DNA of 64,000 bases from Candidatus Levyibacteriota bacterium (GTDB taxonomy: Bacteria; Patescibacteriota; Microgenomatia; Levybacterales; UBA12049), in NCBI GenBank assembly GCA_016182235.1, contig JACOXT010000003.1:451488-515487 (forward strand), read 5' to 3'. Positions 1,796 through 60,898 of this stretch are shown here, one piece after another. How positions within the stretch are numbered: position 1 is the first letter of the stretch; every line of letters begins with the position of its first letter. Under the pieces are notes generated by a model. That model was not told where the DNA came from and did no database searches. It worked only from the letters and a program-made list of their open reading frames with translations. A program made the position numbers and the translations under genes.

Positions 1796-2362
1796 ATGAA
1801 GATTGGCATAGATATATCTCAAATTGCATATGAAGGGACTGGAGTTGCGCGATACTTAAGGTCTCTGGTTGAAGAGCTCCTGAGAATTGATAAAAAGAAC
1901 GAGTATGTCCTTTTTTTCTCAAGCCTCAGAAGAAAAATTCCCTCCTTCGCCAAGGCTGCCTCCTTCGCCGAAGTGGCTACGAAGGCCGAGTCGGCGGGCA
2001 AGAGAAATTCCAAAATAAAGGCTTTTAGATTTCCCCCTTCTTTGTTAGATTTACTCTGGAATAGGCTGCATATTTTGCCGGTCGAGTGGCTAATTGGAGA
2101 TGTTGATATTTTTATTACTTCCGACTGGACGGAGCCTCCTGTACTTCGAGCAAAAAAGGCAACAATTCTATACGACCTTATTGTTTATAAATATCCTCAA
2201 GAAACAGATAAACATATTGTCGAGGTTCAAAAGCGAAAATTAGAATGGGCTAAAAAAGAATCAGATTTAATTTTTTGCATATCAGAGGCCACAAAGAAAG
2301 ATGCCATGGAAATCTTAGACGTTGAAGAGGAACGATTAAAGGTTATATTGCCGGGAGTGTGA
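1796..2362 (+). CDS. truncated GT4 glycosyltransferase, N-terminal Rossmann domain only (possible gene remnant)
   Basis: 188 aa. Starts MKIGIDISQ..GTGVARY like a GT4 N-domain and stops just after ...ILPGV, the position where the downstream GT4 has TYPGV. Lacks the C-terminal EX7E/nucleotide-sugar domain. Contains the GC-rich in-frame insertion at 1934-2011. Confidence 0.5.
   Translation: MKIGIDISQIAYEGTGVARYLRSLVEELLRIDKKNEYVLFFSSLRRKIPSFAKAASFAEVATKAESAGKRNSKIKAFRFPPSLLDLLWNRLHILPVEWLIGDVDIFITSDWTEPPVLRAKKATILYDLIVYKYPQETDKHIVEVQKRKLEWAKKESDLIFCISEATKKDAMEILDVEEERLKVILPGV
1934..2011. repeat. GC-rich ~60-bp in-frame insertion flanked by AAATTCC direct repeats inside the GT4 fragment
   Basis: agAAAAATTCC[ctccttcgccaaggctgcctccttcgccgaagtggctacgaaggccgagtcggcgggcaag]AGAAATTCCaaaat. 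The core contains palindromic CTTCGCCGAAG. Confidence 0.6.
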
Positions 2363-3564
2363 TTATGACTATTGGGATCAATGGATACGAAGCTGTAATG
2401 CCGAGGTTTGGATATGATTTTGAAACAAAACTGCCAAGAAGGGTCGGCAGCGGTGAATATTGTTTTGAACTCCTACTATATCTTAACAAAATTGATAAGA
2501 AAAACAAATATATAATATTTCTTCCCAAAACTCCAACAATGGATTTACCTAGGCAATCAGATAGCTGGCGATATAGGATTGTTGGGCCAAAGCGCTTTTG
2601 GACGATTTTTGGGTTATCAATGGAATTTTTGCTTAGGCGGTCTAAGGTAGACGTATTTTTCTCCCCAACTCATTATTTGCCTTTTTTTTTGCCAGTAAAA
2701 TCCGCTGTTTCTGTTTTAGATGTTTCCTTTATTCATTTTCCTAAGCTTTTTAAAAAGAAAGATCTGTATCAGCTTAAGAGTTGGACAGCTTATTCGGTAA
2801 GGAAAGCATCAAAAGTGTTAACGATTAGCCTGGCGTCAAAAGATGATATAATTAAGACATACAATGTTTCGAAGGAAAAGGTGATAGTTACATATCCCGG
2901 AGTAAAATCCGAAATTCAAATATCGAAATTCGAAACAAATGCAAAATTCAAAATGCAAAATTCAAAATTTCTTAAAGATAAGTACGGGGCTGAAGGGAAT
3001 TATATTTTGTTTGTGGGGACATTACAGCCCAGAAAAAATATAGTCCGTCTTATCGAGGCCTTTAGCCATATTTCTTCTTCTTTAATCATTAATCCTGCCT
3101 CGCCGGCAGGCAGGCCTTTATCGTTAATCATTGTGGGTAAAAAGGGTTGGTTATATGAGGAAATTTTGGAGACTCCCAAAAAGCTTAATATTGAGACGAA
3201 AGTAAAGTTTTTAGAAAATATTTCAGATGAAGATTTGCCTTATTTTTATAAAAACGCTTTATGTTTTGTTTTACCTAGCCTATATGAAGGGTTTGGCCTG
3301 CCAATTTTGGAAGCAATGAGATATGGGTGTCCGGTTATCACAAGTAATATCTCCTCGCTTCCCGAGGCAGGAGGAGACGCGGCTCTATACGTAGATCCTC
3401 TCAATGTAGACGATATTGCCAAAAAATTGGAATTAGTAATTAATAATGAAGATTTAAGGAAAAAACTTATAAAAAAAGGTTACGAACAAGTTAGGAAATT
3501 CAGTTGGGAGAAAACAGCAAGAGAAACATTAAGGGTATTGGAAGGTGTAGTAAATAATGAGTAG
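2359..3564 (+). CDS. GT4-family glycosyltransferase
   Basis: 401 aa with the C-terminal GT4 signature EGFGLPILEAMRYGCPVITS. Carries two in-frame mini-insertions (2905-2972 and 3082-3132). Confidence 0.85.
   Translation: MIMTIGINGYEAVMPRFGYDFETKLPRRVGSGEYCFELLLYLNKIDKKNKYIIFLPKTPTMDLPRQSDSWRYRIVGPKRFWTIFGLSMEFLLRRSKVDVFFSPTHYLPFFLPVKSAVSVLDVSFIHFPKLFKKKDLYQLKSWTAYSVRKASKVLTISLASKDDIIKTYNVSKEKVIVTYPGVKSEIQISKFETNAKFKMQNSKFLKDKYGAEGNYILFVGTLQPRKNIVRLIEAFSHISSSLIINPASPAGRPLSLIIVGKKGWLYEEILETPKKLNIETKVKFLENISDEDLPYFYKNALCFVLPSLYEGFGLPILEAMRYGCPVITSNISSLPEAGGDAALYVDPLNVDDIAKKLELVINNEDLRKKLIKKGYEQVRKFSWEKTARETLRVLEGVVNNE
2905..2972. repeat. AT-rich in-frame insertion with GAAATTC/AAAATTC tandem units in GT4
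   Basis: tccGAAATTCaaatatcGAAATTCgaaacaaatgcAAAATTCaaaatgcAAAATTCaaaatttc encodes SEIQISKFETNAKFKMQNSKF. Confidence 0.6.
3082..3132. repeat. GC-rich hairpin mini-insertion with perfect 9-bp direct repeat (TTAATCATT) inside GT4 CDS
   Basis: TTAATCATTaatCCTGCCtcgccGGCAGGcaggcctttatcgTTAATCATT. Repeat-to-repeat distance is 42 nt (14 codons), so it is in frame. Confidence 0.7.
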
Positions 3565-4127: not shown

Positions 4128-5018
4128 GTGATAGAACTCTCTATAATTATTCTTTCTTATAATACCAAAGATTTAACGCGTCGATGCATCCAATCAGTAA
4201 GAAAGCAATATAAAAAAGAACTGATAGACAAAAAATTGGAAATTATAGTTATTGACAATAATTCATCCGATGATTCTGCATCTTTATTGTCAGATCTTAA
4301 AAAAGAAATACTCGCCTCGCGGCGAAGCGGGTCAAATTTTACACTAATTCAAAATAGAGAAAATTTAGGATTTGCTAAAGGTTGCAATTTCGGCGCTAAA
4401 AACGCTAAAGGAAAATATCTTCTTTTTCTAAATTCTGATACTACAGTTCTAGATAGGGGATTTTTACGGATGACAGAATTTTTAGATAATCACAAAGAAG
4501 CTGGTATTTTGGGTGGAAGACTTCTGAATCCAAATGGTACTCCCCAACGATCGGGTGGAAAGTTTTATAACCTATGGTACCTTTTTTTAATGCTTTTAGG
4601 GTTGGAGGTGTTAGTAAGAAGATCACCTACTAAGATAGATAAGATTGATTGGGTAAGTGGGGCTTGCTTGATGATAGGAAAGAATCAATTCAATAATCTA
4701 TCTGGTTTTGATGAACATTTTTTCATGTACATAGAAGACATGGAATTATGCTATAGGATGAGAAAACTTGGTTTTTCAACTTATTTTTATCCTTTTGTTG
4801 GGATTGAGCATAAAACCCTAGGTAGCAGCAACAGATCATTTGCTATAATTAATATTTATAAGGGAATTCTCTATTTTTATTCAAAACACAAAAATCATCT
4901 AGAGTATTTAGTTGCCAAAACATTGCTTATCTCAAAAGCAGAAATTTTAATTTTGGTAGGATTTTTGACATTTAGCTCTGGGCTAAGGGATAGATACAGA
5001 AAGGCGGTAATGTTTTAA
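4128..5018 (+). CDS. GT2-family glycosyltransferase
   Basis: N-terminal IIILSYNTKD and VIDNNSSDDS with a DXD-like FLNSDT. Contains a GC-palindrome insertion at 4311-4332. Confidence 0.8.
   Translation: MIELSIIILSYNTKDLTRRCIQSVRKQYKKELIDKKLEIIVIDNNSSDDSASLLSDLKKEILASRRSGSNFTLIQNRENLGFAKGCNFGAKNAKGKYLLFLNSDTTVLDRGFLRMTEFLDNHKEAGILGGRLLNPNGTPQRSGGKFYNLWYLFLMLLGLEVLVRRSPTKIDKIDWVSGACLMIGKNQFNNLSGFDEHFFMYIEDMELCYRMRKLGFSTYFYPFVGIEHKTLGSSNRSFAIINIYKGILYFYSKHKNHLEYLVAKTLLISKAEILILVGFLTFSSGLRDRYRKAVMF
4311..4332. repeat. GC-rich palindromic core CTCGCCTCGCGGCGAAGCGGGT inside GT2 CDS
   Basis: Same core family as the copies at 29026-29047 and (reverse complement) 45518-45538. Confidence 0.6.
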
Positions 5019-8237: not shown

Positions 8238-9719
8238 ATGAGGAAGTTTGAGATTTTTGCGTTGGCAGTTATTCTTATTGGGGCGTTTACAGTTAGGTTA
8301 TATAGGTTCGACTGGCCGGTTGCGGATTGGCACAGTTGGCGTCAGACTGACACATCGGCAGTTTCCCGAAATTTTGTAAGAGAAGGTTTCGACATATTCC
8401 GTCCCAAATTTGATGATTTATCTTCCGGTGTTTCTTTAATCGATAACCCAGAAGGTTACAGGTTTGTTGAATTTCCTATCTATAATGTGTTTCAAGCCAT
8501 TCTTTATCAGCAAATCGGTAAATTTACACTTGAGGAATGGGGAAGAGTAGTAACTATCTTTTCTTCCCTAATTTCGATAGTTTTTCTTTACCTTCTAGTT
8601 GCAAAGTACACGAATTCTCGCACCGGACTTTTGGCTTCTTTTTTCTTTGCTCTCATTCCATATAATATTTTTTATGGTCGCACCATTCTTCCCGATCAAT
8701 CTATGGTTGCATCACTTCTTGCAGGAACATACTTTTTTTCAAATTGGATGGAAAATAAAGACTTCAAATTTTCGATTTTCAATCTTCAATTTTTTCTAGC
8801 TGTCTTACTTATGGCGATGGCTTTACTTTTGAAGCCTTACGCTTTGTTTTTTACTTTGCCTTTGGTTTATCTTGCATGGAGTCGTTTTGGCTTTGGCTTT
8901 TTAAAAAAATGGCAGCTTTGGGCTTATTTTATTCTGGCAATTTTGCCTTTGATCTTGTGGCATATATGGATGAGTCAAAGGGAGTTTATTCAAGGAATTC
9001 CGCGTAATGATTGGTTATTTAATGGTAACGGCATTAGATTTAAAGGAGCATTTTTTCATTGGCTTTTTGGAGACAGAATAGGTCGTCTTATCTTGGGATA
9101 CTGGGGATTGCCTTTTGTTGTTTTGGGAATCATAAGGAAAATCAATAGAAAAGAAAATTGGTTTTTTTATTTTTTTATAGTTTCCTCTCTTGCCTATATG
9201 ACAATTTTAGCAACAGGAAATATCCAGCACGATTATTATCAAATTCTTATTGTTCCAACCCTTTCAATTTTTCTTGCAAAGGGTGTAGACCTTATACTTA
9301 GCAGTAAAGAATTTTTTAACCGGTCAGTTTCTTATATAATAATTGCTGGTGGAATTATTTTTATGTTAGCCTTCGGTTGGTTTGGGGTCAGGGATTATTA
9401 CAGCATTCAGCACCCGAACCTTATAGCTGCGGGACTCGCAGTTGACGAGCTTACTCCGAAAGATGTAAAAATTATTGCGCCCTATGGCGGGGATACAACC
9501 TTGTTATACCATACCAATCGAAAAGGCTGGCCGGTTTTTGACAGATCTTTTAAGGATTTTAAGAAAGCAGGAGCATCTTATATTGCCTTTGCTGATCCAA
9601 CGCCAGAGGAACTAAATTTAGAAACGTTATTCGAGCCTGTAATTATCACCCCTCAATACGCAATATTTGATCTTACAAAACCCACTCTGCAAGGCTTAAG
9701 AGAACAGAAAAAAGATTAA
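8238..9719 (+). CDS. GT39/GT83-like (ArnT/PMT-type) membrane glycosyltransferase
   Basis: N-terminus RLYRFDWPVADWHSWRQTDTSAVSRNF is the typical PMT_2/ArnT-like signature. Has about 11 TM helices. Contains a heptamer tract at 8763-8795. Confidence 0.7.
   Translation: MRKFEIFALAVILIGAFTVRLYRFDWPVADWHSWRQTDTSAVSRNFVREGFDIFRPKFDDLSSGVSLIDNPEGYRFVEFPIYNVFQAILYQQIGKFTLEEWGRVVTIFSSLISIVFLYLLVAKYTNSRTGLLASFFFALIPYNIFYGRTILPDQSMVASLLAGTYFFSNWMENKDFKFSIFNLQFFLAVLLMAMALLLKPYALFFTLPLVYLAWSRFGFGFLKKWQLWAYFILAILPLILWHIWMSQREFIQGIPRNDWLFNGNGIRFKGAFFHWLFGDRIGRLILGYWGLPFVVLGIIRKINRKENWFFYFFIVSSLAYMTILATGNIQHDYYQILIVPTLSIFLAKGVDLILSSKEFFNRSVSYIIIAGGIIFMLAFGWFGVRDYYSIQHPNLIAAGLAVDELTPKDVKIIAPYGGDTTLLYHTNRKGWPVFDRSFKDFKKAGASYIAFADPTPEELNLETLFEPVIITPQYAIFDLTKPTLQGLREQKKD
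8763..8795. repeat. TTCAATT/TTCGATT heptamer tract inside GT39-like CDS (encodes FKFSIFNLQFF)
   Basis: ttcaaattttcgattttcaatcttcaatttttt. Related to the ileS AATTTTC tract. Confidence 0.6.
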
Positions 9720-9772: not shown

Positions 9773-10987
9773 AATATTCTTCTTATCTCGTCATTTCTTC
9801 CTTATCCTCTGTTTACCGGAGGACATATTCGCTTATTTAATTTAATAAAGCTCTTATCAAAAAAACACTCAATAACACTGGTATGTGAAAAAAGAGAATC
9901 GCAAAAGCAAAATGATGTTAGAGAGTTAGAGAAATATTGCAAGATTGTTAGAGTGATTCCTCGAAGAAAGCAATGGTCAATGGGTAATATTTTAAAAACA
10001 GGTTTTTCAATTTCCCCATTTTTAGTAACTGGACACACGAGTAGACTTATGAAAGAGGAAATAAAGAGTCTAATTAGCCAAACTCAATTTGATTTGATTC
10101 ATATAGAAACATCTTATGTGATGCAAAATCTGCGCTCCGGTAAGCTAGGTATTCCTATTGTTTTAGTTGAGCATAATATAGAGTATCTGGTCTATAAACG
10201 ATTTGTTGACAATATGCCTTTATATCTTCGGCCGATTTTGTATTTAGATATATTGAAGCTAAAATACTGGGAGGAAAGGATGTGGAGAAAAGCAACTAAA
10301 TTAATAGCTGTATCAGAGTCTGAAAAGAAAATAATGAGTTTAGAAAAAAAGGACGTGGTAGTGGTGCCAAATGGAGTAGATGTTAATAAATATCAAATAT
10401 CATCCATTCGACAAGCTCAGGATAAAAATAGAAAAGAAGAGAAAAGAGTTCTTTTTATTGGAGACTTTAGATGGATTCAAAACAGAGATGCTCTTACACA
10501 AATTATTTTAGACATTTGGCCAAAACTTAGAGCAGAAGTTATACCTTCATTAACAGAGGGATTAAAACTTTGGGTTGTTGGGAGAAAAATACCAGACTCA
10601 ATAAAGAAATTAACAAGAGACAAAAGTATTTTTTTTGATGAAAATGCGCCCGCCGATACACAGCTTATTTATAAAAATGCTTATCTTTTACTTGCTCCAA
10701 TTAACGTTGGGGGAGGAACAAGTTTTAAGATCTTAGAAGCTATGGCTTCAGGCGTTCCTGTAATAACAACGCGTTTGGGAAACGCTATCGGGGCACAGGA
10801 TAACTTAGAGATTCTTGTTGCTCATTCCCCAAAAGACTTTGTGCAGAGAATTATTGAACTATTCGAGAATAAAGCTCTTTATAGTAAAATTTCTACAAAT
10901 GCGCGAAAACTCGTGGAAGAAAAGTTTAATTGGGATAAGATTGCAAACGATTTAAATTCTGTCTACGAATCTGTAGTATATGCTTGA
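9770..10987 (+). CDS. GT4-family glycosyltransferase
   Basis: N-terminal ILLISSFLPYPLFTGGHIRLFNL and C-terminal FKILEAMASGVPVITT. The ORF track uses GTG 9752, but ATG 9770 is the more likely start. Confidence 0.8.
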   Translation: MNILLISSFLPYPLFTGGHIRLFNLIKLLSKKHSITLVCEKRESQKQNDVRELEKYCKIVRVIPRRKQWSMGNILKTGFSISPFLVTGHTSRLMKEEIKSLISQTQFDLIHIETSYVMQNLRSGKLGIPIVLVEHNIEYLVYKRFVDNMPLYLRPILYLDILKLKYWEERMWRKATKLIAVSESEKKIMSLEKKDVVVVPNGVDVNKYQISSIRQAQDKNRKEEKRVLFIGDFRWIQNRDALTQIILDIWPKLRAEVIPSLTEGLKLWVVGRKIPDSIKKLTRDKSIFFDENAPADTQLIYKNAYLLLAPINVGGGTSFKILEAMASGVPVITTRLGNAIGAQDNLEILVAHSPKDFVQRIIELFENKALYSKISTNARKLVEEKFNWDKIANDLNSVYESVVYA

Positions 10988-11879
10988 TTTATCTATTATT
11001 ATCGTTAATTACAACACCAAAGAATTTTTAGAAGGATGTGTTGATTCGCTTCTGAATTCAATTTCAAAGAAAATTAATTATGAAATTGTTGTGGTTGATA
11101 ATGCATCCATTGATGACTCGCCATCGGCAATCTCTCGCCTTCGTCAAGACTTCGGGGGGAAAGTAAATATAAAAACAATTTTAAATAAGGAAAATTTGGG
11201 GTTTTCTAGAGCGAATAATCAAGGAATAAAAATTTCTCAAAACAGCCGATACATATTGTTTTTAAATCCTGATACTCTTGTCAAAAATGACACGGTCGAA
11301 AAAATGATCGAATTTATGGATAAGCATAAAGATGCGGGGGCTGCAACATGTAAAGTCGTTATGCAAAATGGGCAAATAGATGATGCGTCTCATCGCGGAT
11401 TTCCAACGCCTTGGAACGCTTTTTGTCATTTTGTAGGTTTTGAAAAAATATTTCCAAAGTCAAGATTATTTAGCGGATACACTTTAGGGTGGAAAGAATT
11501 TTCAAAAGTACATGAAATAGATGTTTTGGCCGGAGCTTTTATGCTAGTCAGAAGAAAGGCGGGAGAGGATGTTAGCTGGTGGGATGAAGATTATTTTTTC
11601 TATGGAGAAGACATAGAATTTTGCTATCAATTAAAACAAAAAGGATGGAAGATTTATTATGTGCCACAGGCTTCAATAATGCATTTTAAAGGCGTTTCGG
11701 GAGGAATAAAATCAGTTTCCAAAGATATTACAACAGCAAATCCAGAAACAAAAAGAATAGCAACAAACGCACGATTTAACGCTATGCGTATTTTTTATAA
11801 CAAGCACTACAAAAAAAAGTATCCACAGGTTGTTAACTGGTTAGTACATCTTGGAATTTCAATAAAAGAACATTTATGA
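10980..11879 (+). CDS. GT2-family glycosyltransferase
   Basis: LSIIIVNYNTKEF, VVDNASIDDS and a DXD-like FLNPDT. Confidence 0.8.
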   Translation: MLDLSIIIVNYNTKEFLEGCVDSLLNSISKKINYEIVVVDNASIDDSPSAISRLRQDFGGKVNIKTILNKENLGFSRANNQGIKISQNSRYILFLNPDTLVKNDTVEKMIEFMDKHKDAGAATCKVVMQNGQIDDASHRGFPTPWNAFCHFVGFEKIFPKSRLFSGYTLGWKEFSKVHEIDVLAGAFMLVRRKAGEDVSWWDEDYFFYGEDIEFCYQLKQKGWKIYYVPQASIMHFKGVSGGIKSVSKDITTANPETKRIATNARFNAMRIFYNKHYKKKYPQVVNWLVHLGISIKEHL

Positions 11880-13033
11880 AAATTGGTATTGACGCAAGAC
11901 TTTGGAACGAAGGAGGGGTAGGAAGATACATAAGAAATCTAATTAAGCAAATTCAGCCTTTAGATAAAAGTAATCTTTATACTTTGTTTGTTTTGTCTAA
12001 AGACTATGAAAGTATTAAGTACGAAGTATCAAGTATTAAGGAGGAAAATTGGGAACTTATAAAGACAAATATTCGGTGGCATTCGATTGAGGAGCAGTTA
12101 AAGTTTGCTAACATTTTAAACAAAGAAGAATTAGATTTGGTGCATTTTCCCTATATTTCGGTGCCGTTGAATTATCAAAAGCCATTTATCATTACAATAC
12201 ACGATTTAATTCCATATCATTATCCTTCTTCAAATGCTTCCGCTCTCCCTTTCCCTATTTACTTCTTAAAATTATTGGCATATAAATTTGTGGTGAGAGC
12301 CGCAGCAAGAAAAGCGCAAAAAATTATCGCGCCCTCAAATTTTACAAAAAAGGAAATTGTAGAACATCTAAAAATTGATCCAAGAAAAGTAATAGTAACT
12401 TACGAAGGAGTAAATAGTAAAATTACAAATTCAAAATCTCAAATTCCAAAAAAATCCCAAAATACTAAATACAAAATACTAAATACAAAATACTTTTTAT
12501 ATGTAGGAAACGCGTTTCCGCATAAGAATCTTGAGGTATTGATAGAAGCTTTCAATCTTTTCCGTCAAGAGCATCCTGGTATTTTTCTTGTCTTTGTCGG
12601 CAAGGAGGATTTCTTCTACAGTCGATTAAAAAATGAGGTTTACAAGCGTAAAATTTCAGACGTAGTTTTTTTACATAATATAATTGATGGGCAATTAGTA
12701 AGTTTGTACAGAAGCGCAATTGCATTTGTTTCACCTTCTCTTATGGAAGGATTTGGTCTGCCGGTTCTTGAGGCAATGGTAAATAGATGTTTGGTTTTGG
12801 CATCGGATATTCCAACACATCGAGAAATTTGTGGCAAGGTTGCCTTATACTTTGATCCTAATAATGTTGGGGATCTAACTCAAAAACTAGAATCCATTCA
12901 CTCTAATGATATGTATTATTATAGTGAAAAAAAAAGGGGGTTTGATCGAGCGAAAGTGTTCTCTTGGGAAAAGATGGCAAGAGAAACTTTAAAAATATAT
13001 GAAAGTTGCGTTGGTTTACGACAGAGTGAATAA
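11876..13033 (+). CDS. GT4-family glycosyltransferase
   Basis: C-terminal EGFGLPVLEAM. Contains the AT-rich in-frame insertion at 12418-12493. Confidence 0.8.
   Translation: MKIGIDARLWNEGGVGRYIRNLIKQIQPLDKSNLYTLFVLSKDYESIKYEVSSIKEENWELIKTNIRWHSIEEQLKFANILNKEELDLVHFPYISVPLNYQKPFIITIHDLIPYHYPSSNASALPFPIYFLKLLAYKFVVRAAARKAQKIIAPSNFTKKEIVEHLKIDPRKVIVTYEGVNSKITNSKSQIPKKSQNTKYKILNTKYFLYVGNAFPHKNLEVLIEAFNLFRQEHPGIFLVFVGKEDFFYSRLKNEVYKRKISDVVFLHNIIDGQLVSLYRSAIAFVSPSLMEGFGLPVLEAMVNRCLVLASDIPTHREICGKVALYFDPNNVGDLTQKLESIHSNDMYYYSEKKRGFDRAKVFSWEKMARETLKIYESCVGLRQSE
12418..12493. repeat. AT-rich ~70-bp in-frame insertion (A/C/T heptamer-like tracts) in GT4, homologous to the murE copy at 29515-29585
   Basis: aaaattacaaattcaaaatctcaaattccaaaaaaatcccaaaat... 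encodes KITNSKSQIPKKSQNTKYKILNTKY. The murE copy is aaaattccaaactcaaaatctcaaattacaaataaatccaaaatt. Confidence 0.65.
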
Positions 13034-28518: not shown

Positions 28519-29757
28519 ATGCTACAGAGAATTAAGAATATTTATCACCTTGGAAATGGCATTCTGGGTAATTTGCGGTTTGGGTTTCCATCACATAAGC
28601 TTACTGTAATAGGCGTTACCGGAACTGATGGTAAAACAACAACTACAAGTCTAATATACCATGTCCTTTCTACATCTGGACGAAATGCATCGATGATAAG
28701 CTCAGTTGGGGCAGTAATAGGAGGAAGAGAGTATGATGTGGGATTTCATGTTACAACTCCTTCTTCCTGGGCGCTTCAGAAGTTTATTAAAGAGGCAGAA
28801 AAGGGCTTTCTGGTTCTTGAGACGACGTCTCATGCCTTGGATCAATTTAGAGTTTGGGGAATAAAATTTGACATTGGAGTTTTAACCAATATCACCCATG
28901 AACACCTAGATTACCACAAGACTTACCATAAATACGTTGAGGCAAAAGCAAAGCTTCTTGAAATGAGCCGAGTAGCGATTGTGAATAGAGACGACAAATC
29001 ATACCCGTTAATAAATTCGAAATTCGCTCGCCTCGCTGCGAAGCGGGAAATTCGAAATTCGAAATTAATTACCTATGGGATGAAAGATAATGCGGATTTA
29101 AATCCAAAAAAATTTCCATTTAAAACAAATATGATTGGAGAGTTCAATATTTACAACAGTCTTGCCGCAATAGCGGTATGTAGAGCTCTTGGTATTCCAG
29201 ATGAAGATATTAGAACGGGTTTAAAGTCATTTAAGCCTCCGATTGGCAGAGAAGAAGTAGTTTATAAGAAAGATTTTACCGTTATGATTGATTTTGCACA
29301 TACACCTAACGCCTTTGAGGAAATTCTGAGTTCAATTAAACCGAGTATAAAAGGCAGACTTATTCACGTATTTGGGTCGGCGGGACTTAGAGACAATACC
29401 AAAAGACCAATTATGGGGAGAGTCTCATCAAAATATGCGGATATTATTGTTTTGACCTCTGAAGATCCAAGATCGGAATCGGTTGAGAAGATTTCAGACG
29501 AGATAGAATCAGGAATAAAAATTCCAAACTCAAAATCTCAAATTACAAATAAATCCAAAATTCAAATATATAAAATTCCAAATCGACAAGAAGCAATTCA
29601 ATTTGCTATTAAGATTGCTAGAAAAGGAGATTTGGTCTTGACAACGGGGAAATCGCACGAAAAATCAATGAATTATGGACATGGAGAAGTTCCGTGGGAC
29701 GAGTACAGCGCTGTACGAAAAGCATTAAAAGGTTTGGGATTAAAGATTAAGGATTAA
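28519..29757 (+). CDS. murE: UDP-N-acetylmuramoyl-tripeptide ligase (MurE-type Mur ligase)
   Basis: P-loop VIGVTGTDGKTTT and a C-terminus GDLVLTTGKSHEKSMNYG resembling MurE GKGHE. Start set at ATG 28519 (MLQRIKN). Carries two in-frame mini-insertions (29014-29066 and 29515-29585). Confidence 0.75.
   Translation: MLQRIKNIYHLGNGILGNLRFGFPSHKLTVIGVTGTDGKTTTTSLIYHVLSTSGRNASMISSVGAVIGGREYDVGFHVTTPSSWALQKFIKEAEKGFLVLETTSHALDQFRVWGIKFDIGVLTNITHEHLDYHKTYHKYVEAKAKLLEMSRVAIVNRDDKSYPLINSKFARLAAKREIRNSKLITYGMKDNADLNPKKFPFKTNMIGEFNIYNSLAAIAVCRALGIPDEDIRTGLKSFKPPIGREEVVYKKDFTVMIDFAHTPNAFEEILSSIKPSIKGRLIHVFGSAGLRDNTKRPIMGRVSSKYADIIVLTSEDPRSESVEKISDEIESGIKIPNSKSQITNKSKIQIYKIPNRQEAIQFAIKIARKGDLVLTTGKSHEKSMNYGHGEVPWDEYSAVRKALKGLGLKIKD
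29014..29066. repeat. mini-insertion in murE: GAAATTC heptamer duplications flanking GC palindrome GCTCGCCTCGCTGCGAAGCGGG
   Basis: aaattcGAAATTC[gctcgcctcgctgcgaagcggg]GAAATTCGAAATTCGAAATT. In frame. Confidence 0.7.
29515..29585. repeat. AT-rich in-frame insertion in murE, homologous (~85% over ~50 nt, same reading frame) to 12418-12493
   Basis: Encodes KIPNSKSQITNKSKIQIYKIPNRQ. The tail tccaaaattcaaatata matches tccgaaattcaaatatc of the copy at 2905-2972. Confidence 0.65.
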
Positions 29758-31196: not shown

Positions 31197-31262
31197 TGTC
31201 ATCCCGAATTTATTTCGGGATCTAATTAGATGCTGAAGCAAGTTCAGCATGACAACTAATAA
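31197..31262 (+). terminator. two adjacent 8-bp-stem hairpins after murC (putative terminator or processing site)
   Basis: aTCCCGAAtttattTTCGGGAt followed by ATGCTGAAgcaagTTCAGCAT, nested within outer GTCAT/ATGAC complementarity. No clear U-tract. Confidence 0.35.
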
Positions 31263-41264: not shown

Positions 41265-41420
41265 ATGGGTAAAAGTAAAAAAATTATTGTAAAAGGAAGC
41301 AAAATCGGTATCATCTTACATATTGGGGATAATGATTTTATCTCTCTAACCGATATGGCAAAATATAAAACTTACTGGTTTGGGGACTGGTTTGGGGACG
41401 GTCCTCGGAGGTGTTGTTAA
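41265..41420 (+). CDS. 51-aa ORF resembling a KilA-N/Bro-N-like N-terminal fragment (possible mobile-element remnant)
   Basis: MGKSKKIIVKGSKIGIILHIGDNDFISLTDMAKYK... The 3-prime end overlaps the TTTGGGGAC repeat motif. The assignment is weak. Confidence 0.2.
   Translation: MGKSKKIIVKGSKIGIILHIGDNDFISLTDMAKYKTYWFGDWFGDGPRRCC
41378..41410. repeat. GGTTTGGGGAC x2 + GGTCCTCGGAG motif (copy 1 of 3)
   Basis: ggtttggggactggtttggggacggtcctcggag. Confidence 0.6.
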
Positions 41421-41547
41421 GACACTCCAAAACAAACGCTGTTCTTGGAGCACCCACAACTCACCCTTAAATACTTGAGAATATTGGCATGTTATCGATT
41501 ATCTATTTCTTTTACTATCTCGAGCATGAAGGAGTAGATGTCTATTT

Positions 41548-42240: not shown

Positions 42241-42260
42241 GTTTGGGGATGGTCCTGAGA
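42241..42260. repeat. GTTTGGGGATGGTCCTGAGA motif (copy 2 of 3), 43 nt upstream of the minus-strand secreted-protein gene
   Basis: gtttggggatggtcctgaga. Confidence 0.6.
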
Positions 42261-42449
42261 TATATTGTTGTAGTAAGCTGAAAGTGAAACATTTTGATCC
42301 TTCGGCCAGCTCAGGACAAGTATGTAGGCATCAATTCAAATGTTAATTATTTTGCCTTGAGAAGATTTTAAGGGTTAGAAACAAGAACTATGTTAAAAAG
42401 TATTTAAACTTTAATTTTTTCTTAAAAAGCTTTAAGATAGTAAGATTGC

Positions 42450-45006: not shown

Positions 45007-46143
45007 ATGAAAGTTGTAGTAATAGGAGGCCATTTATCTCCAGCGTTATCCGTAATCGAAGCGCTGCCAAAAGAGGTAAGTATATTATTTGTTGGAAGAA
45101 AATATTCTTTTGAGGGAGATAAGTCAAAATCTTTGGAATACGAGACCATTAATTCTCTTAAGTTTCCTTTTGCTGAGATTACTACAGCAAGGTGGCAAAG
45201 AAAGTTTACAAGACACACTATTAATTCGCTCTTTAAATTTCCTATTGGAGTTATTCAGTCGTTATTTATTTTATTAAGATTTAAGCCAGATGTTGTTGTT
45301 GGATTTGGAGGGTATGTGTCTCTGCCAGTTGCTATATCTTCTTTTATCCTAAGAGTTCCCGTTGTAATTCACGAGCAGACTTTGGAGGCAGGTTTTTCAA
45401 ATAGAATAATTTCGGTATGGGCTTCTAAGATATGTATATCATGGGAGTCATCACGCTCATTTTTTCCAAAAGAAAAAACGGTATTGACAGGAAACCCGAT
45501 ACGGAAGTTCGAAGTTCCCGCTTCGCAGAGAGGCGAGCGAAGTATGAAGTATGAAGTTGATAAGAAGGTTCCTACAATTTATATAACCGGTGGAAGTTCG
45601 GGATCGCATTTTATCAACAAATTAGTCGAAGGTTGTATTGGGGAACTGCTGAGAAAATTCAACATAATCCATCAGATTGGAGAGTCAAAATTTGGCGATT
45701 TTGAACGCTTAGTAAAGCTTCGTGAGACATTTTCTTTTGATCAACGCAAAAGATATATTTTAAAAAAATTTGTTAAACCGTCCCAAGTTGCCTCAATTTT
45801 AAAATATTGCGATTTAGCTATATCACGTTCGGGTATAAATACAATAACAGAACTTATTTATTTTGAAAAACCAGCTATTCTAATACCCCTCCCATTTTCT
45901 CAAAATAACGAACAATTGAAAAACGCAAGATTTTTGGAGACGTTCAAATTAGGAAAAGTATTGTCTCAAAACGAAGCTGACTCAAGAAGCTTATCTCAAA
46001 TGGTAGACTTAATATTTGATAATATAAAAGAGCATAAGTTAAATGAGAGCGAATCAGCGAAGAGGCAAATAGAAAATGCGGCTCAAAATATAGTTAAGAT
46101 TGTTGAATATGTCGGTGAAACAAAGAAAGTCCCGAAATTATAG
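45007..46143 (+). CDS. murG: undecaprenyldiphospho-muramoylpentapeptide beta-N-acetylglucosaminyltransferase
   Basis: N-terminal VIGGHLSPALSV and a GT28 C-terminal domain. Carries the GC-palindrome insertion at 45504-45558. Confidence 0.8.
   Translation: MKVVVIGGHLSPALSVIEALPKEVSILFVGRKYSFEGDKSKSLEYETINSLKFPFAEITTARWQRKFTRHTINSLFKFPIGVIQSLFILLRFKPDVVVGFGGYVSLPVAISSFILRVPVVIHEQTLEAGFSNRIISVWASKICISWESSRSFFPKEKTVLTGNPIRKFEVPASQRGERSMKYEVDKKVPTIYITGGSSGSHFINKLVEGCIGELLRKFNIIHQIGESKFGDFERLVKLRETFSFDQRKRYILKKFVKPSQVASILKYCDLAISRSGINTITELIYFEKPAILIPLPFSQNNEQLKNARFLETFKLGKVLSQNEADSRSLSQMVDLIFDNIKEHKLNESESAKRQIENAAQNIVKIVEYVGETKKVPKL
45504..45558. repeat. mini-insertion in murG: GAAGTTC/GAAGTAT heptamer duplications flanking GC palindrome CCGCTTCGCAGAGAGGCGAGC (reverse orientation of the murE core)
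   Basis: GAAGTTCGAAGTTC[ccgcttcgcagagaggcgagc]GAAGTATGAAGTATGAAGTT. In frame. Confidence 0.7.
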
Positions 46144-53169: not shown

Positions 53170-56097
53170 ATGTTCGAAGTTGTAGATCCAAAATTAAATT
53201 TCCCCAAGCTCGAAGAGGACCTTCTTAAAATGTGGTACAAAGAGGGAATTGTGAAAAAATATCTTCAAAAAAATAATTCTTCCAAGAAGAAATTTTCTTT
53301 TCTTGATGGGCCAATAACTGCTAACAATCCCATGGGTGTTCACCATGCCTGGGGAAGAACTTACAAAGATCTCTGGCAAAGATTTTGGAACATGAGAGGC
53401 TATAAGCAAAGATTCCAGAATGGATTTGATGAACAAGGGCTTTGGGTCGAGGTAGAAGTTGAAAAAGAATTGGGTTTGAAGAATAAGAAAGATATTGAAA
53501 ATTTAATTCCGGGCAATAAGTTTGCAAGTCTTGAGAAATTTATAAATCTTTGTAAAGAAAGAGTAAGAAAATTTTCTAAGATTCAAACCGAACAAAGCAA
53601 GAGGCTTGGATATTTTATGGACTGGGACAACTCTTATCATACCTCTTCGGATCGAAATAACTACACAATCTGGAATTTCTTAAAAATCGTCAATGAAAAA
53701 GGCTGGCTTTACAAGGGACGAGACAGTGTGCCGTGGTGCCCAAGATGCGGGACTGCAATTTCTCAACATGAAATTTTGACTGAGGAATACAAAGAACTTA
53801 CTCATAAAACAGTCGTTTTTAAACTTACAATTAAAGGGAGAAACAAAGAATATTTACTTGCTTGGACTACAACGCCCTGGACAATTCCGGGAAATGTCGC
53901 GCTTGCAGTTGACAATAATCTATCGTATTGGAAGATGGAAAACGCCAAAGGCGAGAAAATAATTATTGTTAATCCGACAGCAAATGGTGATCTTAATAAG
54001 GAAGCTATGCTTGTTAATAGGCTAGGATTAATAGAAGGTTATGTAAAAGTAGAGGAACTTAAGGGAAAAGATCTTGTAGGACTTGGATACGAGGCGCCTT
54101 ATGATAGTTTGCCTTCTGTTAAAAAAACCCTTGGGAATTATACGCATCGGGTAGTTGCAACTGATCCCCAAGTATTACCGATTAATCCAGCTGAGGGTAC
54201 TGGAATTGTCCATATTGCTCCTGGCGCGGGCGCGGAAGATTTTAAGCTTAGCAAGAAAGAAAAAATACCTGCAATTGAGGAAATTGACGAAAGTGGTGTA
54301 TTTATAGACGGATTTGATTTTATGTCTGGAAAGCATGTTAAAAAAGCAATGCCTCAGATTTTGGAGGACCTTGAAAAACGTAACTTTGCTTTTAAAATTT
54401 TTGACTATATGCATCGCTATCCTACATGCTGGAGGTGTAAAACTGAGTTAGTCTGGAGAGTAGTTGATGAATGGTATATAGCAATGGATAAAGCATTAAA
54501 GTCAAAAGTCAAAAGTCAAAAGTCAAAAGTTGAAGAAAATAAAACATATAGAGAACAGATGATTGAGGTAGCTAAGAAGATTAACTGGATACCTAAATGG
54601 GGATTAGATAGGGAACTTGATTGGCTTTCCAACATGCACGATTGGCTTATAAGCAAAAAGCGTTTTTGGGGACTGGCATTACCAATTTGGGAATGCAAAG
54701 AGTGCGGAAGTTTTGAGGTGATTGGCGGACGGGAGGAGCTTAAAGTTCGAGCATTTAGCGGTTGGAAGGAGTTCGATGGAAATAGCCCCCATAGACCATG
54801 GATTGATCAAATAAAAATAAAATGCAAAAATTGTAGATCAATAATGTCACGAATACCTGATGTTGGAAACCCATGGCTTGATGCAGGTATTGTTCCTTTC
54901 TCAACATTGCCCGCTGGTTGGTTTCCAGCAGATTTTATTACTGAAAGTTTTCCAGGGCAATTTAAAAATTGGTTTTACTCTCTTATTGCAATGGCAACAG
55001 CTATTAAAAATGAACCTCCTTTTAAAACAGTTTTGGGGTTTGCTTCAGTTCGAGACGAAAAAGGAGAGGAAATGCATAAATCAAAAGGAAATGCTATTGA
55101 ATTCAATGAAGCCGCAGGCAAGATTGGGGGAGACGTCATGAGGTGGCTTTACACGACTCAAAAGCCTGAACTCAATCTTAATTTTGGTTATGGACCCGCA
55201 ACAGACGTAAAAAGAAGATTCTATTTAATACTTTGGAACAGTTATAAATTTTTTGTTGACTACGCAAAAGCTTCTTCATGGGAATGTGGAAGAAATGTTA
55301 AAGATTTAACAATACTAGATAAATGGATTCTGGCAAGATTAACAGAAGTAGTTTTCTTGGTAAATGAATCTTTAGAAAGATTCGATGCAAGTCGCGCCTC
55401 TTTCGCAATAGAGGAATTTGTAGTGAAAGATTTTTCTACATGGTACATAAGAAGATCTCGAGACAGGGTTTCGCCAATTTCAGACGCAAATGACAGAAAT
55501 ACTTGTTTTTCAGTTATGTACGGAGTCTTGGTTACGCTTTCCAAATTACTTGCTCCTTTTACGCCATTTATTGCTGAGGAAATATTTAGAAATTTGGCAA
55601 ATGAAGAATCAGTACATTTACAAAGTTATCCGAAGGGCGACAAGTCGCTATTGAATAGAAATCTTATTGAGGATATGAAGAAAGTAAGGGAAGTTGTCGA
55701 AGCTGGACACGCAAAACGAAAAGAAATTGGGATAAGAGTAAGACAACCGCTACCCAAATTTTCAATTTTCAATTTTCAATTTTCAATTGAAGAGAAGCTA
55801 ATAGATCTTATTAGGGATGAGTTAAATGTTAAAAATGTTATTTTCAAGATGAGAAAAGGACCGTTTTCTGTGGAGTTCGATACGGAGATTACAAACGATC
55901 TTAAAAATGAAGGTGAGGCAAGAGAAATAGTTAGAAGAATTCAGCAGGAACGAAAAATTATAGGTACGACATTGAATGAGAGGGTAAATGTCACTTTGGA
56001 GAGTTGGCCGGCTTCATATAGCAATTACATTAAAAGAAATGCGTTAGTTGGAAGTCTCAAAAAAGGAGACGAATTTTCGGTCGCAAGGCAGAAATGA
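53170..56097 (+). CDS. ileS: isoleucyl-tRNA synthetase, type 2 (eukaryote/archaeal-like)
   Basis: FLDGPITANNPMGVHHAWGRTYKDL..GFDEQGLWVE matches the type-2 IleRS N-terminus. KMSKS-like HKSKGN present. Carries in-frame repeat tracts at 54498-54531 and 55757-55789. Confidence 0.85.
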   Translation: MFEVVDPKLNFPKLEEDLLKMWYKEGIVKKYLQKNNSSKKKFSFLDGPITANNPMGVHHAWGRTYKDLWQRFWNMRGYKQRFQNGFDEQGLWVEVEVEKELGLKNKKDIENLIPGNKFASLEKFINLCKERVRKFSKIQTEQSKRLGYFMDWDNSYHTSSDRNNYTIWNFLKIVNEKGWLYKGRDSVPWCPRCGTAISQHEILTEEYKELTHKTVVFKLTIKGRNKEYLLAWTTTPWTIPGNVALAVDNNLSYWKMENAKGEKIIIVNPTANGDLNKEAMLVNRLGLIEGYVKVEELKGKDLVGLGYEAPYDSLPSVKKTLGNYTHRVVATDPQVLPINPAEGTGIVHIAPGAGAEDFKLSKKEKIPAIEEIDESGVFIDGFDFMSGKHVKKAMPQILEDLEKRNFAFKIFDYMHRYPTCWRCKTELVWRVVDEWYIAMDKALKSKVKSQKSKVEENKTYREQMIEVAKKINWIPKWGLDRELDWLSNMHDWLISKKRFWGLALPIWECKECGSFEVIGGREELKVRAFSGWKEFDGNSPHRPWIDQIKIKCKNCRSIMSRIPDVGNPWLDAGIVPFSTLPAGWFPADFITESFPGQFKNWFYSLIAMATAIKNEPPFKTVLGFASVRDEKGEEMHKSKGNAIEFNEAAGKIGGDVMRWLYTTQKPELNLNFGYGPATDVKRRFYLILWNSYKFFVDYAKASSWECGRNVKDLTILDKWILARLTEVVFLVNESLERFDASRASFAIEEFVVKDFSTWYIRRSRDRVSPISDANDRNTCFSVMYGVLVTLSKLLAPFTPFIAEEIFRNLANEESVHLQSYPKGDKSLLNRNLIEDMKKVREVVEAGHAKRKEIGIRVRQPLPKFSIFNFQFSIEEKLIDLIRDELNVKNVIFKMRKGPFSVEFDTEITNDLKNEGEAREIVRRIQQERKIIGTTLNERVNVTLESWPASYSNYIKRNALVGSLKKGDEFSVARQK
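54498..54531. repeat. (AAAGTC)x5 hexamer tandem repeat inside ileS (encodes KSKVKSQKSKV)
   Basis: Seen directly: aaagtcaaaagtcaaaagtcaaaagtcaaaagt. Confidence 0.8.
55757..55789. repeat. (AATTTTC)x4.7 heptamer tandem repeat inside ileS (encodes KFSIFNFQFSI)
   Basis: Seen directly: aattttcaattttcaattttcaattttcaattg. Confidence 0.8.
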
Positions 56098-60651: not shown

Positions 60652-60693
60652 TGGGGACCATTTTGGGGACCATTTTGGGGATGGTCCTCAGAG
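60652..60693. repeat. GGGGACCATTTT x2 + GGGGATGGTCCTCAGAG motif (copy 3 of 3), 57 nt upstream of the minus-strand DmpA-family gene
   Basis: tggggaccattttggggaccattttggggatggtcctcagag. GGACCAT and ATGGTCC can pair as a 7-bp hairpin. Confidence 0.6.
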
Positions 60694-60898
60694 CGATTGA
60701 TTTAACAATCCAGACTAATCATAGATTTGAGATATAACTCCACTTTGATAAAATTAGCCGATTGGAATAATTGTCAACAATTTGGCTTTGATTTTATGAA
60801 TAATATTAAATGTTTTGAAACATTTAATCTAATTCATAATTTCTCATATTTTATTTTATTGAATAGCATGGTAGAATCTAAGGCGTTGAAAATTAACA

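Follow-up and report, generated by a model that had tools for sequence, protein, structure and literature searches.

A GC-rich block in a Levybacteria GT4 gene is probably built of two nested copies of a short dispersed repeat

We analyzed a 64,000-nucleotide stretch of a Candidatus Levyibacteriota genome (the window) and found that a GC-rich block on its forward strand, at positions 1940-2002, is probably selfish repeat DNA made of two nested copies of a 30-nt element that we call F1. Judging from the sequences, we put the probability of this reading at roughly 0.7. The element belongs to a dispersed family found in numerous unrelated genes of Levybacteria and of other low-GC, CPR-like contigs, and the gene that carries the block is an old, conserved one.

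Genomes of the CPR/Patescibacteria are described as streamlined and nearly without non-coding DNA. Here, small structured repeats persist in frame inside essential genes, including those for IleRS, Mur ligases, MurG, TopA, SecA, and TsaD. If our reading is correct, it would explain the length-variable low-complexity loops of CPR proteins and would bear on annotation, alignment, and structure prediction; it would also link the unexplained, long-noted excess of heptanucleotide repeats in bacteria to a second class of elements.

The GC-rich block and the structure of F1

The block is 63 nt long and 68% GC, compared to 36% GC for the window as a whole. It lies in the longest (1939-2005) of the 27 GC islands in the window, defined as 30-nt windows of at least 66.7% GC, a cut-off that marks the window's top 0.1%. 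A sequence-only reading had pointed to a segment of more than 65% GC at this place, and that segment is real: the 61-nt string it quoted lies at 1942-2002, the palindrome CTTCGCCGAAG is present at 1963-1973, and the block is in frame with the 188-aa ORF at 1796-2362, where it encodes PSFAKAASFAEVATKAESAGK. Within 1940-2002, all three sense frames are free of stop codons; an example of a peptide spanning the insert is SFAKAASFAEVATK. We found no exceptional folding energy for the small palindrome or for the block as a whole (z = -1.4, with 20 of 200 shuffles equaling it).

F1 is composed of a 6-bp GC-rich stem, TTC, a 3-bp stem with a 2-nt loop, a second TTC, the closing strand, and a tail conserved as CAAG or CAGG (CTTG or CCTG on the other strand). 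When 1940-1957 is joined to 1991-2002, the result is one complete 30-nt F1, and the inner copy is nested within the 3' internal loop of this outer one (Table 1). The inner copy matches our covariance model of the element (R1) over the full length of the model, although the match is weak (15.2 bits, E = 0.31), and in principle it could be a diverged internal duplication instead. The point of nesting (GGCT^TC) is identical in the window and at two other loci, L007 and L027; further nested or composite copies, with the junction elsewhere within F1, occur in metagenome contigs (e.g., L117, L122, L125, and L160). The F1 at L007 itself holds a nested insert.

Table 1 Positions of the repeat elements, their flanks, and the host gene in the window.
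Feature	Positions	Strand	Basis and context
Host gene, stand-alone GT4 N-terminal-domain protein, 188 aa	1796..2362	+	Pfam PF13439, homologues, synteny
Left flank AAAAATT	1933..1939	+	Remnant heptamer unit whose last T precedes the element; flank logo AAAWYT^element; orthologues have 4-unit heptamer arrays here
Outer F1, 5' part CCCTCC TTC GCC AA GGC T	1940..1957	+	Fits the F1 consensus
Inner F1-like copy, 33 nt, GCCTCC TTC GCC GAAGT GGC TAC GAAGGC CGAG	1958..1990	+	Covariance model R1
Outer F1, 3' part TC GGCGGG CAAG	1991..2002	+	Same as the 3' end of F1 in L019, L039, and L007
Right flank AGAAATTCCAAAATAAA	2003..2019	+	Degenerate heptamer units; downstream logo CAAAAWTT; orthologues show CAAAATTTCAAAATAAA
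Heptamer array (AAAATTC-type)	2904..2969	+	Read through by the ribosome; follows the PGV motif of the full GT4; TRF: period 7, 9.9 copies
F5 GC palindrome CCTGCCTCGCCGGCAGGCAGGCC	3094..3116	+	In frame in the full-length GT4 gene
F3 (21-nt GC element family)	4311..4331	-	Antisense, in frame in GT2 gene 4128-5018 (Pfam); BLAST 95% identity to other F3 copies
Second F1 copy CTCGCCTTCGTCAAGACTTCGGGGGGAAAG	11134..11163	+	In frame in GT2 gene 10980-11879 (Pfam); R1 27.6 bits, E = 4e-4
F3 copy 29025-47 with flanks	29008..29066	-	Between (AAATTCG)2 and (GAAATTC)3 units; in frame, Mur ligase gene
F3 copy 45517-39 with flanks	45503..45557	+	Between (GAAGTTC)2 and (GAAGTAT)2.7 units; MurG interdomain linker

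The two stems are best seen in alignments. In the first (A2), 92.9% of cells are paired compared to 81.2% in shuffled versions (0 of 500 as high), and the covariation score is 0.346 against 0.163 when shuffled and 0.03-0.10 in slid controls. An independent set of 59 distinct copies (A6), retrieved through the 3' half of the element only, behaves in the same way: pairing reaches 90.4% compared to 81.0% (0 of 500), covariation is 0.239 compared to 0.102, and GC, CG, UA, and AU are all seen at pair 4-23. Across both sets of aligned sequences, the two F1 stems covary. It is covariation, and not the folding of individual copies, that argues for this structure; single F1 copies do not fold better than shuffled sequences by thermodynamic criteria (z ~ 0). 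We rejected a simple thermodynamic hairpin given that single-sequence DNA folds of F1 and of another family, F2, match their shuffles. We also rejected an assembly artefact, since copies with compensatory changes are present in independent NCBI, ENA, JGI, and Logan assemblies.

Searches of existing collections yielded little. No Rfam family was found in the window at the gathering threshold, and at the E-value threshold there was nothing relevant around the block; the viral copies of F1 gave no Rfam match either. A 35-nt F1 query against annotated collections returned 11 weak plasmid and 3 phage matches, none of them annotated as a repeat, and literature searches by topic, DNA string, and encoded peptide found no description of F1.

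Dispersal, orientation, and insertion sites

While the entire 63-bp string is unique within the window, its 30-nt building block recurs at 11134-11163 and elsewhere; given that it is built of repeated units, the segment is not a unique, non-repeated piece of GC-rich DNA. BLAST searches with the cores of the elements revealed that a 29-30-nt sequence recurs in other genes and other species with up to 100% identity. The R1 model gave 19 matches across 1.23 Mb of Levybacteria loci, each of them on the same strand as the query gene, and F1 is found in at least 120 metagenome contigs, mostly of 31-49% GC. The F1 core is also found in GC-rich viral contigs, at gene junctions.

We collected 117 distinct copies of F1, nearly all of them single. 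Most lie in the sense orientation in ORFs of at least 100 aa (90/117); 7 are antisense and 20 fall outside a long ORF. The hosts include KsgA, SecA, Fmt, TsaD, FemAB, TopA, and ParB. Because F1 is read in all three frames (35, 37, and 18 copies by phase), what is conserved is the DNA or RNA and not a peptide. At one locus (L166), convergent TopA and ParB genes each hold a sense copy, and for this reason we rejected replication strand as the cause of the orientation.

F1 typically sits between two heptamer units of the CAAAANY type. Heptamers with at least five of seven identical positions are found on both sides at 13 of 20 sites, compared to 6-8% in controls, and the target logo reads AAAWYT^ / CAAAAN[T/C]^. 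Heptamer tandem arrays are strongly enriched inside the genes of this lineage, with period 7 far commoner than neighboring periods, and the GC elements usually occur among them. Most arrays span 28-34 nt, or about 4-5 units; of 88 perfect arrays, 85 are located within ORFs, where they are translated in all three phases. The sister families share this setting. Relatives of the F5 palindrome lie between AAGTATT-type heptamers at L017 and L028, with another copy at L085, and are nested in F1 at L122 and L125; the F3 copy at 45503-45557 is 87% complementary to the one at 29016-29060.

Comparisons of orthologues yielded pairs of filled and empty sites. The array at 2904-2969 is an empty allele of a site where L033 carries F3, seen as a 21-nt alignment gap. 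Comparing L016/L047 with L008 and with L053 gave a difference of +30 nt in each case, and with L025 a difference of +33 nt. For other copies the boundaries give lengths of 24 and 39 nt, and every length (21-39 nt) is divisible by three. A given site can hold one element family in one species and another family in the next. None of the filled/empty alignments contains an extra flanking unit or a target duplication. The bracketing heptamers do resemble a 7-bp target duplication, and the case against one comes from two alignments together with reading-frame arithmetic: a duplication is disfavored because 30 + 7 breaks the frame.

Could the host instead be keeping F1 as a functional cis-element, for example an mRNA hairpin that tunes translation or decay, or a site where a protein binds the two CTTCG motifs, which lie 11 nt apart? 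We regard this as unlikely. In its favor, both stems covary while the TTC/TTC bases of the loops stay invariant, sense copies outnumber antisense copies by 90 to 7, and the element is conserved in distant lineages, including the viral contigs with their copies at gene junctions. However, F1 is scattered over unrelated genes in all three frames, it is present in some orthologues and absent from others, and other families take the same site elsewhere. A nested copy interrupts the outer hairpin, and a functional motif should not survive this. The sense bias, moreover, is already explained by a stop-codon filter, because the heptamer landing pads are free of stops in one orientation only.

Far less probable is a purely local origin that needs no mobile element, with the block produced by slippage during replication or by internal duplication within a linker that is hypervariable and of low complexity. 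The site is a hot spot of heptamer arrays whose units change in concert between species, and the block contains an 18-nt imperfect internal repeat (TCCTTCGCCAAGGCTGCC / TCCTTCGCCGAAGTGGCT). Slippage would not, however, account for a 29-30-nt sequence that is up to 100% identical elsewhere and present in at least 120 metagenome contigs; AT-rich heptamers cannot give rise to this GC-rich sequence, and the inner piece has a complementary stem of its own.

The host gene

The sequence-only reading had taken the host ORF for a tandem duplicate, cut short, of the GT4 gene that follows it, with an element inserted between AAATTCC repeats. The observations behind it are accurate as far as they go: both genes contain GT4 N-domains, the short ORF closes with ILPGV at the place of TYPGV in the following gene, and AAATTCC is present on either side of the block, at 1935-1941 and 2005-2011. 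The model of a recent truncation followed by an insertion with AAATTCC as its target-site duplication is very improbable. The host ORF and the downstream GT4 N-domain share 24% identity, a similarity at the family level, which the sequence-only reading had itself named as grounds for refuting the duplication. The lengths of the 120 best homologues all fall within 176-196 aa, and in 28 aligned homologues, with about 70% identity to the query, the GT4 domain stops at a PG[IVLA] motif followed by a short extra tail at most. The gene order is conserved as well (half-GT4, full GT4, hexapeptide transferase, GT2, and a membrane protein of about 1050 aa), and relatives are encoded in 447 GTDB species genomes. 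Given this low identity, conserved length, synteny, and breadth, the host ORF is an old conserved gene with no recent truncation, and not a broken duplicate.

The starts of the two AAATTCC copies are separated by 70 bp, a distance not divisible by three, and the left copy runs into the element, whose first two bases supply its CC. This spacing, the filled/empty alignments, and element lengths in multiples of three led us to reject a target-site duplication, whether AAATTCC or any 7-bp unit; the AAATTCC flanks are leftover units of a heptamer array. The proposal of an insertion of about 60 bp survives in part. That there was an insertion is borne out by the dispersed repeats and by their presence and absence at orthologous sites; the net excess over the shortest orthologues, however, is 33 bp (188 compared to 177 aa), and at the site of the block these orthologues have either one element of 30 nt or some four heptamer units.

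The region of the insertion is hypervariable across orthologues, and AlphaFold assigns residues 44-78 of the host protein a pLDDT below 50. From this model we infer that the insertion site is a low-confidence, permissive loop following strand beta-2 of the GT4 N-domain.

A translational bypass ('hop') like that of yeast mitochondrial byps or T4 gene 60 would suit a GC-rich structured insert between short direct repeats in AT-rich coding sequence, yet its probability is negligible: inserts are all multiples of three with no stop codon in the three sense frames, the AAATTCC copies lie in different codon phases so that a hop would meet a stop codon at once, and ORF calls across hundreds of genomes read through.

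A possible insertion system and comparison with known systems

If F1 is mobile, its insertion would be specific for site and orientation and would leave no target duplication; we saw no polymorphism within a population that would point to recent transposition. The element would land 3' of the T at an ...AAAAYT^C junction between heptamer units; its own AAGGCT^TC loop may mimic this target, which would explain the nesting. The copies that survive would be those in permissive loops with a length in multiples of three and no stop codons, and in 1796-2362 the ribosome would simply translate the insert.

The target logo, the absence of a duplication, and the fixed orientation of F1 would fit single-strand transposition of the IS200/IS605 (HUH Y1) type, and among enzyme classes we consider an IS200/RAYT-type single-strand HUH/Y1 transposase the likeliest candidate. 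Y1 transposase genes are common in Levybacteria genomes. The hairpins next to five distinct Y1-transposase genes of Levybacteria/CPR are not F1; at the loci with Y1_Tnp genes (L167, L224-L230) these are CACCTGGGAGGTG, CCACCCCCGAGGTGG, or TGGTCAAAGCTCGGCTTTGACCA, and R1 detected no F1 near the genes except for a copy in a neighboring half-GT4 gene. A direct link to RAYT was rejected because these flanking hairpins differ from F1.

We tentatively suggest that F1, the F2, F3, F5, and F8 families, and the in-gene heptamer arrays might form one previously undescribed CPR insertion system that remodels the surface loops of essential proteins without target duplication. As a single system this is doubtful; were it true, the occurrence of the hairpin in viral contigs rich in GC would be a hint that it has moved from one phylum to another.

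The Rickettsia palindromic elements (RPE) were reportedly described by Ogata et al. in 2000. Like F1, they are selfish palindromic repeats, in frame in conserved genes of a small-genome bacterium, translated through at permissive positions, and present or absent between orthologues. In contrast, RPE are about 100-150 bp long with a CGTC end, whereas F1 has 30 nt, a CAAG tail, and no CGTC, and so is set apart by the descriptions of RPE (discussed in PMC3733652 and PMC1779305; CGTC end tag in PMC3733652). F1 also differs in its defined two-stem fold, its self-nesting, and its tie to heptanucleotide arrays, and it ranges over CPR-like contigs and some GC-rich viral contigs where RPE are described from Rickettsia. 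We noticed no resemblance in sequence between the two.

REP/REPIN elements, including intragenic REPs, are mobilized by RAYT, an IS200/IS605-type Y1 transposase (PMC3733652, PMC3337134). They share with F1 a GC-rich imperfect palindrome of 20-40 nt repeated throughout the genome, a tetranucleotide adjoining the hairpin, the lack of target duplication, the ability to enter other palindromes, and known intragenic copies. The REP tag, however, is GTAG or CGTC and that of F1 is CAAG (CTTG on the other strand); REPs are mainly extragenic and often in inverted pairs, while F1 is mostly single and intragenic (90/117 sense in long ORFs). In a REPtron the RAYT gene is flanked by its own repeat, and F1 has no such gene among the Y1 genes examined.

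Published bacterial heptanucleotide repeats include the cyanobacterial STRR, Xanthomonas GGGAATC, and Beggiatoaceae TAACTGA (PMC4692102, PMC4679880, citing Mrazek 2007). As in our arrays, period 7 dominates and units are uniform within an array and variable between relatives, but the published repeats are mainly intergenic, compared to 85 of 88 inside ORFs here.

MITEs have terminal inverted repeats, for which the 6-bp stems of F1 could count, and a fixed-length target duplication. We rejected this class because filled and empty sites align without an added flank unit and a 7-bp duplication would break the frame. The GC clusters or double-hairpin elements of fungal mitochondria are mobile, organellar, and in some cases bypassed or gene-disrupting. 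Like F1, they are short, GC-rich, and structured, they have spread in an AT-rich genome including its coding regions, and they nest mutually; their sequences are different, and F1 is bacterial and always in frame. Overall, F1 falls outside both the REP/REPIN-RAYT and the RPE classes, and intragenic REPs and RPE are its closest analogues.

The GC-rich block and its host gene

GC content is 36% over the whole window and 68% over the 63 nt at 1940-2002, which lie in frame within the 188-aa ORF at 1796-2362 and encode the peptide PSFAKAASFAEVATKAESAGK. The island at 1939-2005 is the longest of the 27 high-GC islands found in the window, defined by 30-nt windows of at least 66.7% GC (the top 0.1% of the window). 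What the sequence-only reading stated about the sequence of this block is correct throughout: CTTCGCCGAAG is located at 1963-1973, and AAATTCC at 1935-1941 and 2005-2011. Three observations weaken what was inferred from it: the start-to-start distance between the AAATTCC copies, 70 bp, does not keep the frame; the first two bases of the element are already part of the left copy; and as DNA, 1934-2011 folds unremarkably (z = -1.4, equalled by 20 of 200 shuffles).

That reading proposed an insertion within a truncated tandem duplicate of the next gene, a full-length GT4, and only half of the proposal stands. The duplicate was not borne out: the ORF and the N-domain of the next gene share 24% identity, a resemblance no closer than family level. 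Searching 5.8 billion proteins gave 2454 relatives; the best 120 of these are all 176-196 aa long and share ~70% identity, with several assigned to Candidatus Levybacteria. Across 28 of these 120 that were aligned, the GT4 domain stops at a common PG[IVLA] motif, any tail beyond it being short, and 53 columns are invariant. The surrounding genes are also kept (half-GT4, full GT4, hexapeptide transferase, GT2, and a ~1050-aa membrane protein), and a relative is encoded in 447 GTDB species genomes. The conserved short length, the kept synteny, and this spread across species argue that the ORF is an old, conserved, stand-alone gene for a GT4 N-domain.

Between conserved flanks, the orthologue alignment is variable at residues 46-72, in length as well as in sequence; in the AlphaFold model, residues 44-78 follow strand beta-2 with pLDDT below 50, which fits a permissive loop. 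In most species the DNA here contains one heptamer repeated four times (AATTTTC, AATCTCA, AATTTCA, AATTCAA, AATATCA, and others), uniform within an array and different between species. Some have a GC-rich core between heptamer units; in the window's closest relatives it is a single 30-nt core, CCCCACTTCGCTGAAGCTTCGCGGGGCAAG. The insertion site is a hot spot of extreme variability, with heptamers as its ground material.

Structure, nesting, and dispersal of the elements

BLAST of the cores against the comparison loci (L-numbers) revealed that they recur in other genes and other species. The half-GT4 gene in L008 and a GT2 gene in L012 share the F1 sequence CCCACCTTCGCCAAGGCTTCGGCGGGCAG at 100% identity, and F1 has copies at about ten more sites; BLAST of the loci also yielded the family F2, CCCCGGCCTYGCCAAGCGAAGYGGGGCGGG. 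F3 has five copies in all; its hosts are genes for GT2, Mur ligase, and MurG, and it occurs either way round. The window copies in the Mur ligase and MurG genes are 87% complementary and oppositely oriented. F5 keeps the reading frame of the GT4 genes that carry it, with AAGTATT-type heptamers on either side, and is nested within F1 in two metagenome contigs (L122, L125).

Alignment of 25 F1 copies suggests the following order of parts: a 6-bp stem, TTC, a 3-bp stem with a 2-nt loop, the 3-bp closing strand, TTC, the 6-bp closing strand, and CAAG. Standard pairs fill 92.9% of cells, compared to 81.2% when shuffled (0/500); the covariation score is 0.346 versus 0.163 shuffled (0/500; slid controls 0.03-0.10), and six pairs show both-sided changes. 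An independent alignment came from a metagenome scan fixing the 3' half and flank alone (GCTTCGNNGGGCAAGCAAAA), which matched at least 120 contigs; most hold a complete F1 whose 5' stem is complementary to the free NN positions. The 59 distinct copies among the matches listed have 90.4% standard pairs versus 81.0% (0/500) and a covariation score of 0.239 versus 0.102 (0/500; slid controls 0.015-0.086), with pair 4-23 seen as GC, CG, UA, and AU. Folding energies of single copies showed no significance, and Rfam has no family matching F1. The pair counts in both data sets support a defined two-stem structure. At different sites F1 reads PxFAKASxGKQ (phase 0), LRQGFGGQA (phase 1), or PSPRLRRA (phase 2); because it is read in three phases, the conserved object is the nucleic acid and not the peptide.

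A covariance model made from the F1 alignment matches the middle of the GC block (Table), where GCCTCC TTC GCC GAAGT GGC TAC GAAGGC CGAG has its own complementary stem. Removing this stretch joins 1940-1957 to 1991-2002 and restores a canonical F1, CCCTCCTTCGCCAAGGCTTCGGCGGGCAAG, which places the inner copy at GGCT^TC of the outer. On this evidence we read the GC block as two nested F1 copies. The nesting point, AAGGCT^TC, is similar to the external target. The same point is used in L007, where a 24-nt element of another family lies within F1, and in L027, where F1 lies within F1; L117, L122, L125, and L160 hold more nested or composite copies at other F1 points. L027 also has, in a 700-aa ORF, a tandem duplication of a 67-nt unit composed of a nested F1 pair and one CAAAACT heptamer, the two copies being in different reading phases.

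Coordinates of repeats, arrays, and transposase genes
Feature	Source	Position	Remarks
F1, covariance-model match	window	11134-11163	27.6 bits; GT2 gene
F1, covariance-model match	window	1958-1990	15.2 bits, full model length
67-nt unit, tandem	L027	1787-1913	
F3 (21 nt)	window	4311-4331 (-), 29025-29047 (-), 45517-45539 (+)	CCCGCTTCGCAGMGAGGCGAG
F3	L033	11114-11136	
F3	L018	15975-15991	
F5 (20-nt GC palindrome)	window	3094-3116	CCTGCCTGCCGGCAGGCAGG
F5	L017	12890-12906	
F5	L028	3074-3087	
F5	L085	433-454	
F5	L122, L125		
Heptamer arrays	window	54498-54530, 55757-55788, 29519-29583, 12010-12040, 12420-12494, 61393-61424, 8767-8793, 2904-2969	in frame
Y1 gene (PF01797)	L224	1910-2584	
Y1 gene (PF01797)	L226	798-1466	
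Y1 gene (PF01797)	L227	2501-3169	
Y1 gene (PF01797)	L230	2501-3181	
Y1 gene (PF01797)	L167	4027-4713	
Y1 gene (PF01797)	L014	3-623	
Intergenic motif TTTGGGGAYGGTCCTSRGAG	window	41374-41421, 42242-42272, 60652-60704	
Double palindrome (58 nt)	window	31197-31254	TGTCATCCCGAATTTATTTCGGGAT...GCTGAAGCAAGTTCAGCATGACA

Insertion into heptamer arrays

Heptamer arrays are characteristic of the lineage, as we saw by counting perfect tandem arrays of at least three copies in 1.23 Mb of Levybacteria loci. There are 65 arrays of period 7, compared to 2, 2, and 3 of periods 5, 6, and 8, and 0 of periods 9-15; period 7 outnumbers each of periods 5, 6, and 8 by a factor of 20-30, and shuffled sequence has no period-7 arrays. 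Perfect arrays of at least 19 nt are mostly 28-34 nt long (~4-5 units), and 85 of 88 lie inside ORFs of at least 100 aa; with a period of 7, they are read in all three phases. Common units on the coding strand consist of an A run, then a T run, then one C, a pattern that would avoid stop codons in every phase. Arrays in the window occur in the genes for IleRS, Mur ligase, MurG, GT4 proteins, RsmH, and a PMT-like protein, with units including AAAGTCA, AATTTTC, AAAATTC, AAATACT, and CAAATAT. Both IleRS arrays are perfect (4.6-4.7 copies), the remaining listed ones imperfect; the first inserts 18 residues when compared with the Thermus enzyme 1ILE. Bacteria are known to have an unexplained excess of heptanucleotide repeats, in cases that are mostly intergenic (PMC4692102, PMC4679880).

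The logo AAAWYT^element^CAAAAWTT summarises the flanks of 24 element copies from ~20 sites; at 13 of 20 sites, the left and right heptamers agree in at least 5/7 positions (controls 6-8%). Among the metagenome matches listed, the upstream flank, unconstrained in the scan, reads CAAAAN[T/C] and matches the downstream unit at 61% of sites. Orthologous sites are filled or empty: the GT4 linker of the window is the empty allele of the F3 copy in L033 (+21 nt), and compared with L016/L047 there are 30 nt more in L008 (F1, after unit 1), 30 nt in L053 (F2, after unit 3), and 33 nt in L025. The inserts are clean, with no extra flanking unit. With core families dispersed and orthologous sites filled or empty, the insertion half of the sequence-only reading is upheld. 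Element lengths are 21, 24, 30, 30, 33, and 39 nt, every one a multiple of three (24 and 39 nt are measured from element boundaries, the others from filled/empty pairs). A 7-bp target duplication was rejected, as it would break the frame and the filled/empty alignments have no added unit.

In Levybacteria loci, 19 of 19 matches to the covariance model share their strand with the query gene. Among the metagenome matches listed, 90 of 117 distinct copies are sense in ORFs of at least 100 aa, 7 are antisense, and 20 fall outside long ORFs, with reading phases split 35/37/18. Pfam places copies in genes for KsgA, SecA, Fmt, TsaD, FemAB, an ornithine cyclodeaminase family protein, TopA, and ParB, among others. 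The TopA and ParB genes of L166 are convergent and each carries a sense F1, so orientation follows the gene and not the replication fork, ruling out a replication-fork account. The sense bias could instead arise if heptamer landing pads are stop-free in one orientation only and F1 always enters them the same way round.

Viral contigs, Y1 transposases, and known systems

The pattern CTTCGCCAAGGCTTCGNNGGG matched 18 IMG/VR contigs of 51-70% GC (L086-L103). Their F1 cores have compensatory stems (CCCGC/GCGGG, CCCTC/GAGGG, CCCTG/CAGGG), often with CAGG or CAAG next, and ~7 of 19 copies directly follow a TGA/ATGA gene junction. The copies in L098 are at gene junctions; two are inverted and flank a 152-aa ORF between genes for an MT-A70-like methylase and a GcrA-like protein. 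Searches with F1 queries found it almost absent from annotated plasmids and phages.

A motif screen of 2.15 Mb identified two Y1 (IS200-like) transposase genes, one directly adjoining the half-GT4 gene in L014; a Y1 gene has the same position in L224. These transposases have 1958 and 6063 homologues at E <= 1e-10, from Levybacteria, Daviesbacteria, Blackburnbacteria, Zambryskibacteria, and Parcubacteria; RAYT-like Y1 genes, with thousands of homologues, occur widely among Levybacteria and in other CPR groups. Each has its own flanking GC hairpins (CACCTGGGAGGTG, CCACCCCCGAGGTGG, TGGTCAAAGCTCGGCTTTGACCA) and a TTGACACCTAGGG motif, a REPtron-like module, and CPR genomes thus hold REP/RAYT-like modules. 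F1 was not found as a flanking repeat of the examined Y1 genes, and the idea that it is their cognate repeat failed, since the flanks carry other hairpins.

The window has further intergenic repeats. Of the three TTTGGGGAYGGTCCTSRGAG copies, two follow 12-nt tandem repeats (ACTGGTTTGGGG, TGGGGACCATTT), and this motif may be a regulatory or promoter-associated repeat. The double palindrome between two Mur-ligase-region genes looks like a terminator.

We found no published description of F1 in the literature searched, and wherever the defining features of the REP/RAYT, RPE, and MITE families were tested, F1 fails them. The element behind the GC block is probably selfish DNA of a known general kind, in a form, F1, that is new and worth following up. 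Closest to it in behaviour are the Rickettsia palindromic elements and intragenic REPs (PMC3733652), from which F1 differs in its size and end tag, its fold, its nesting, and its tie to in-gene heptamer arrays.
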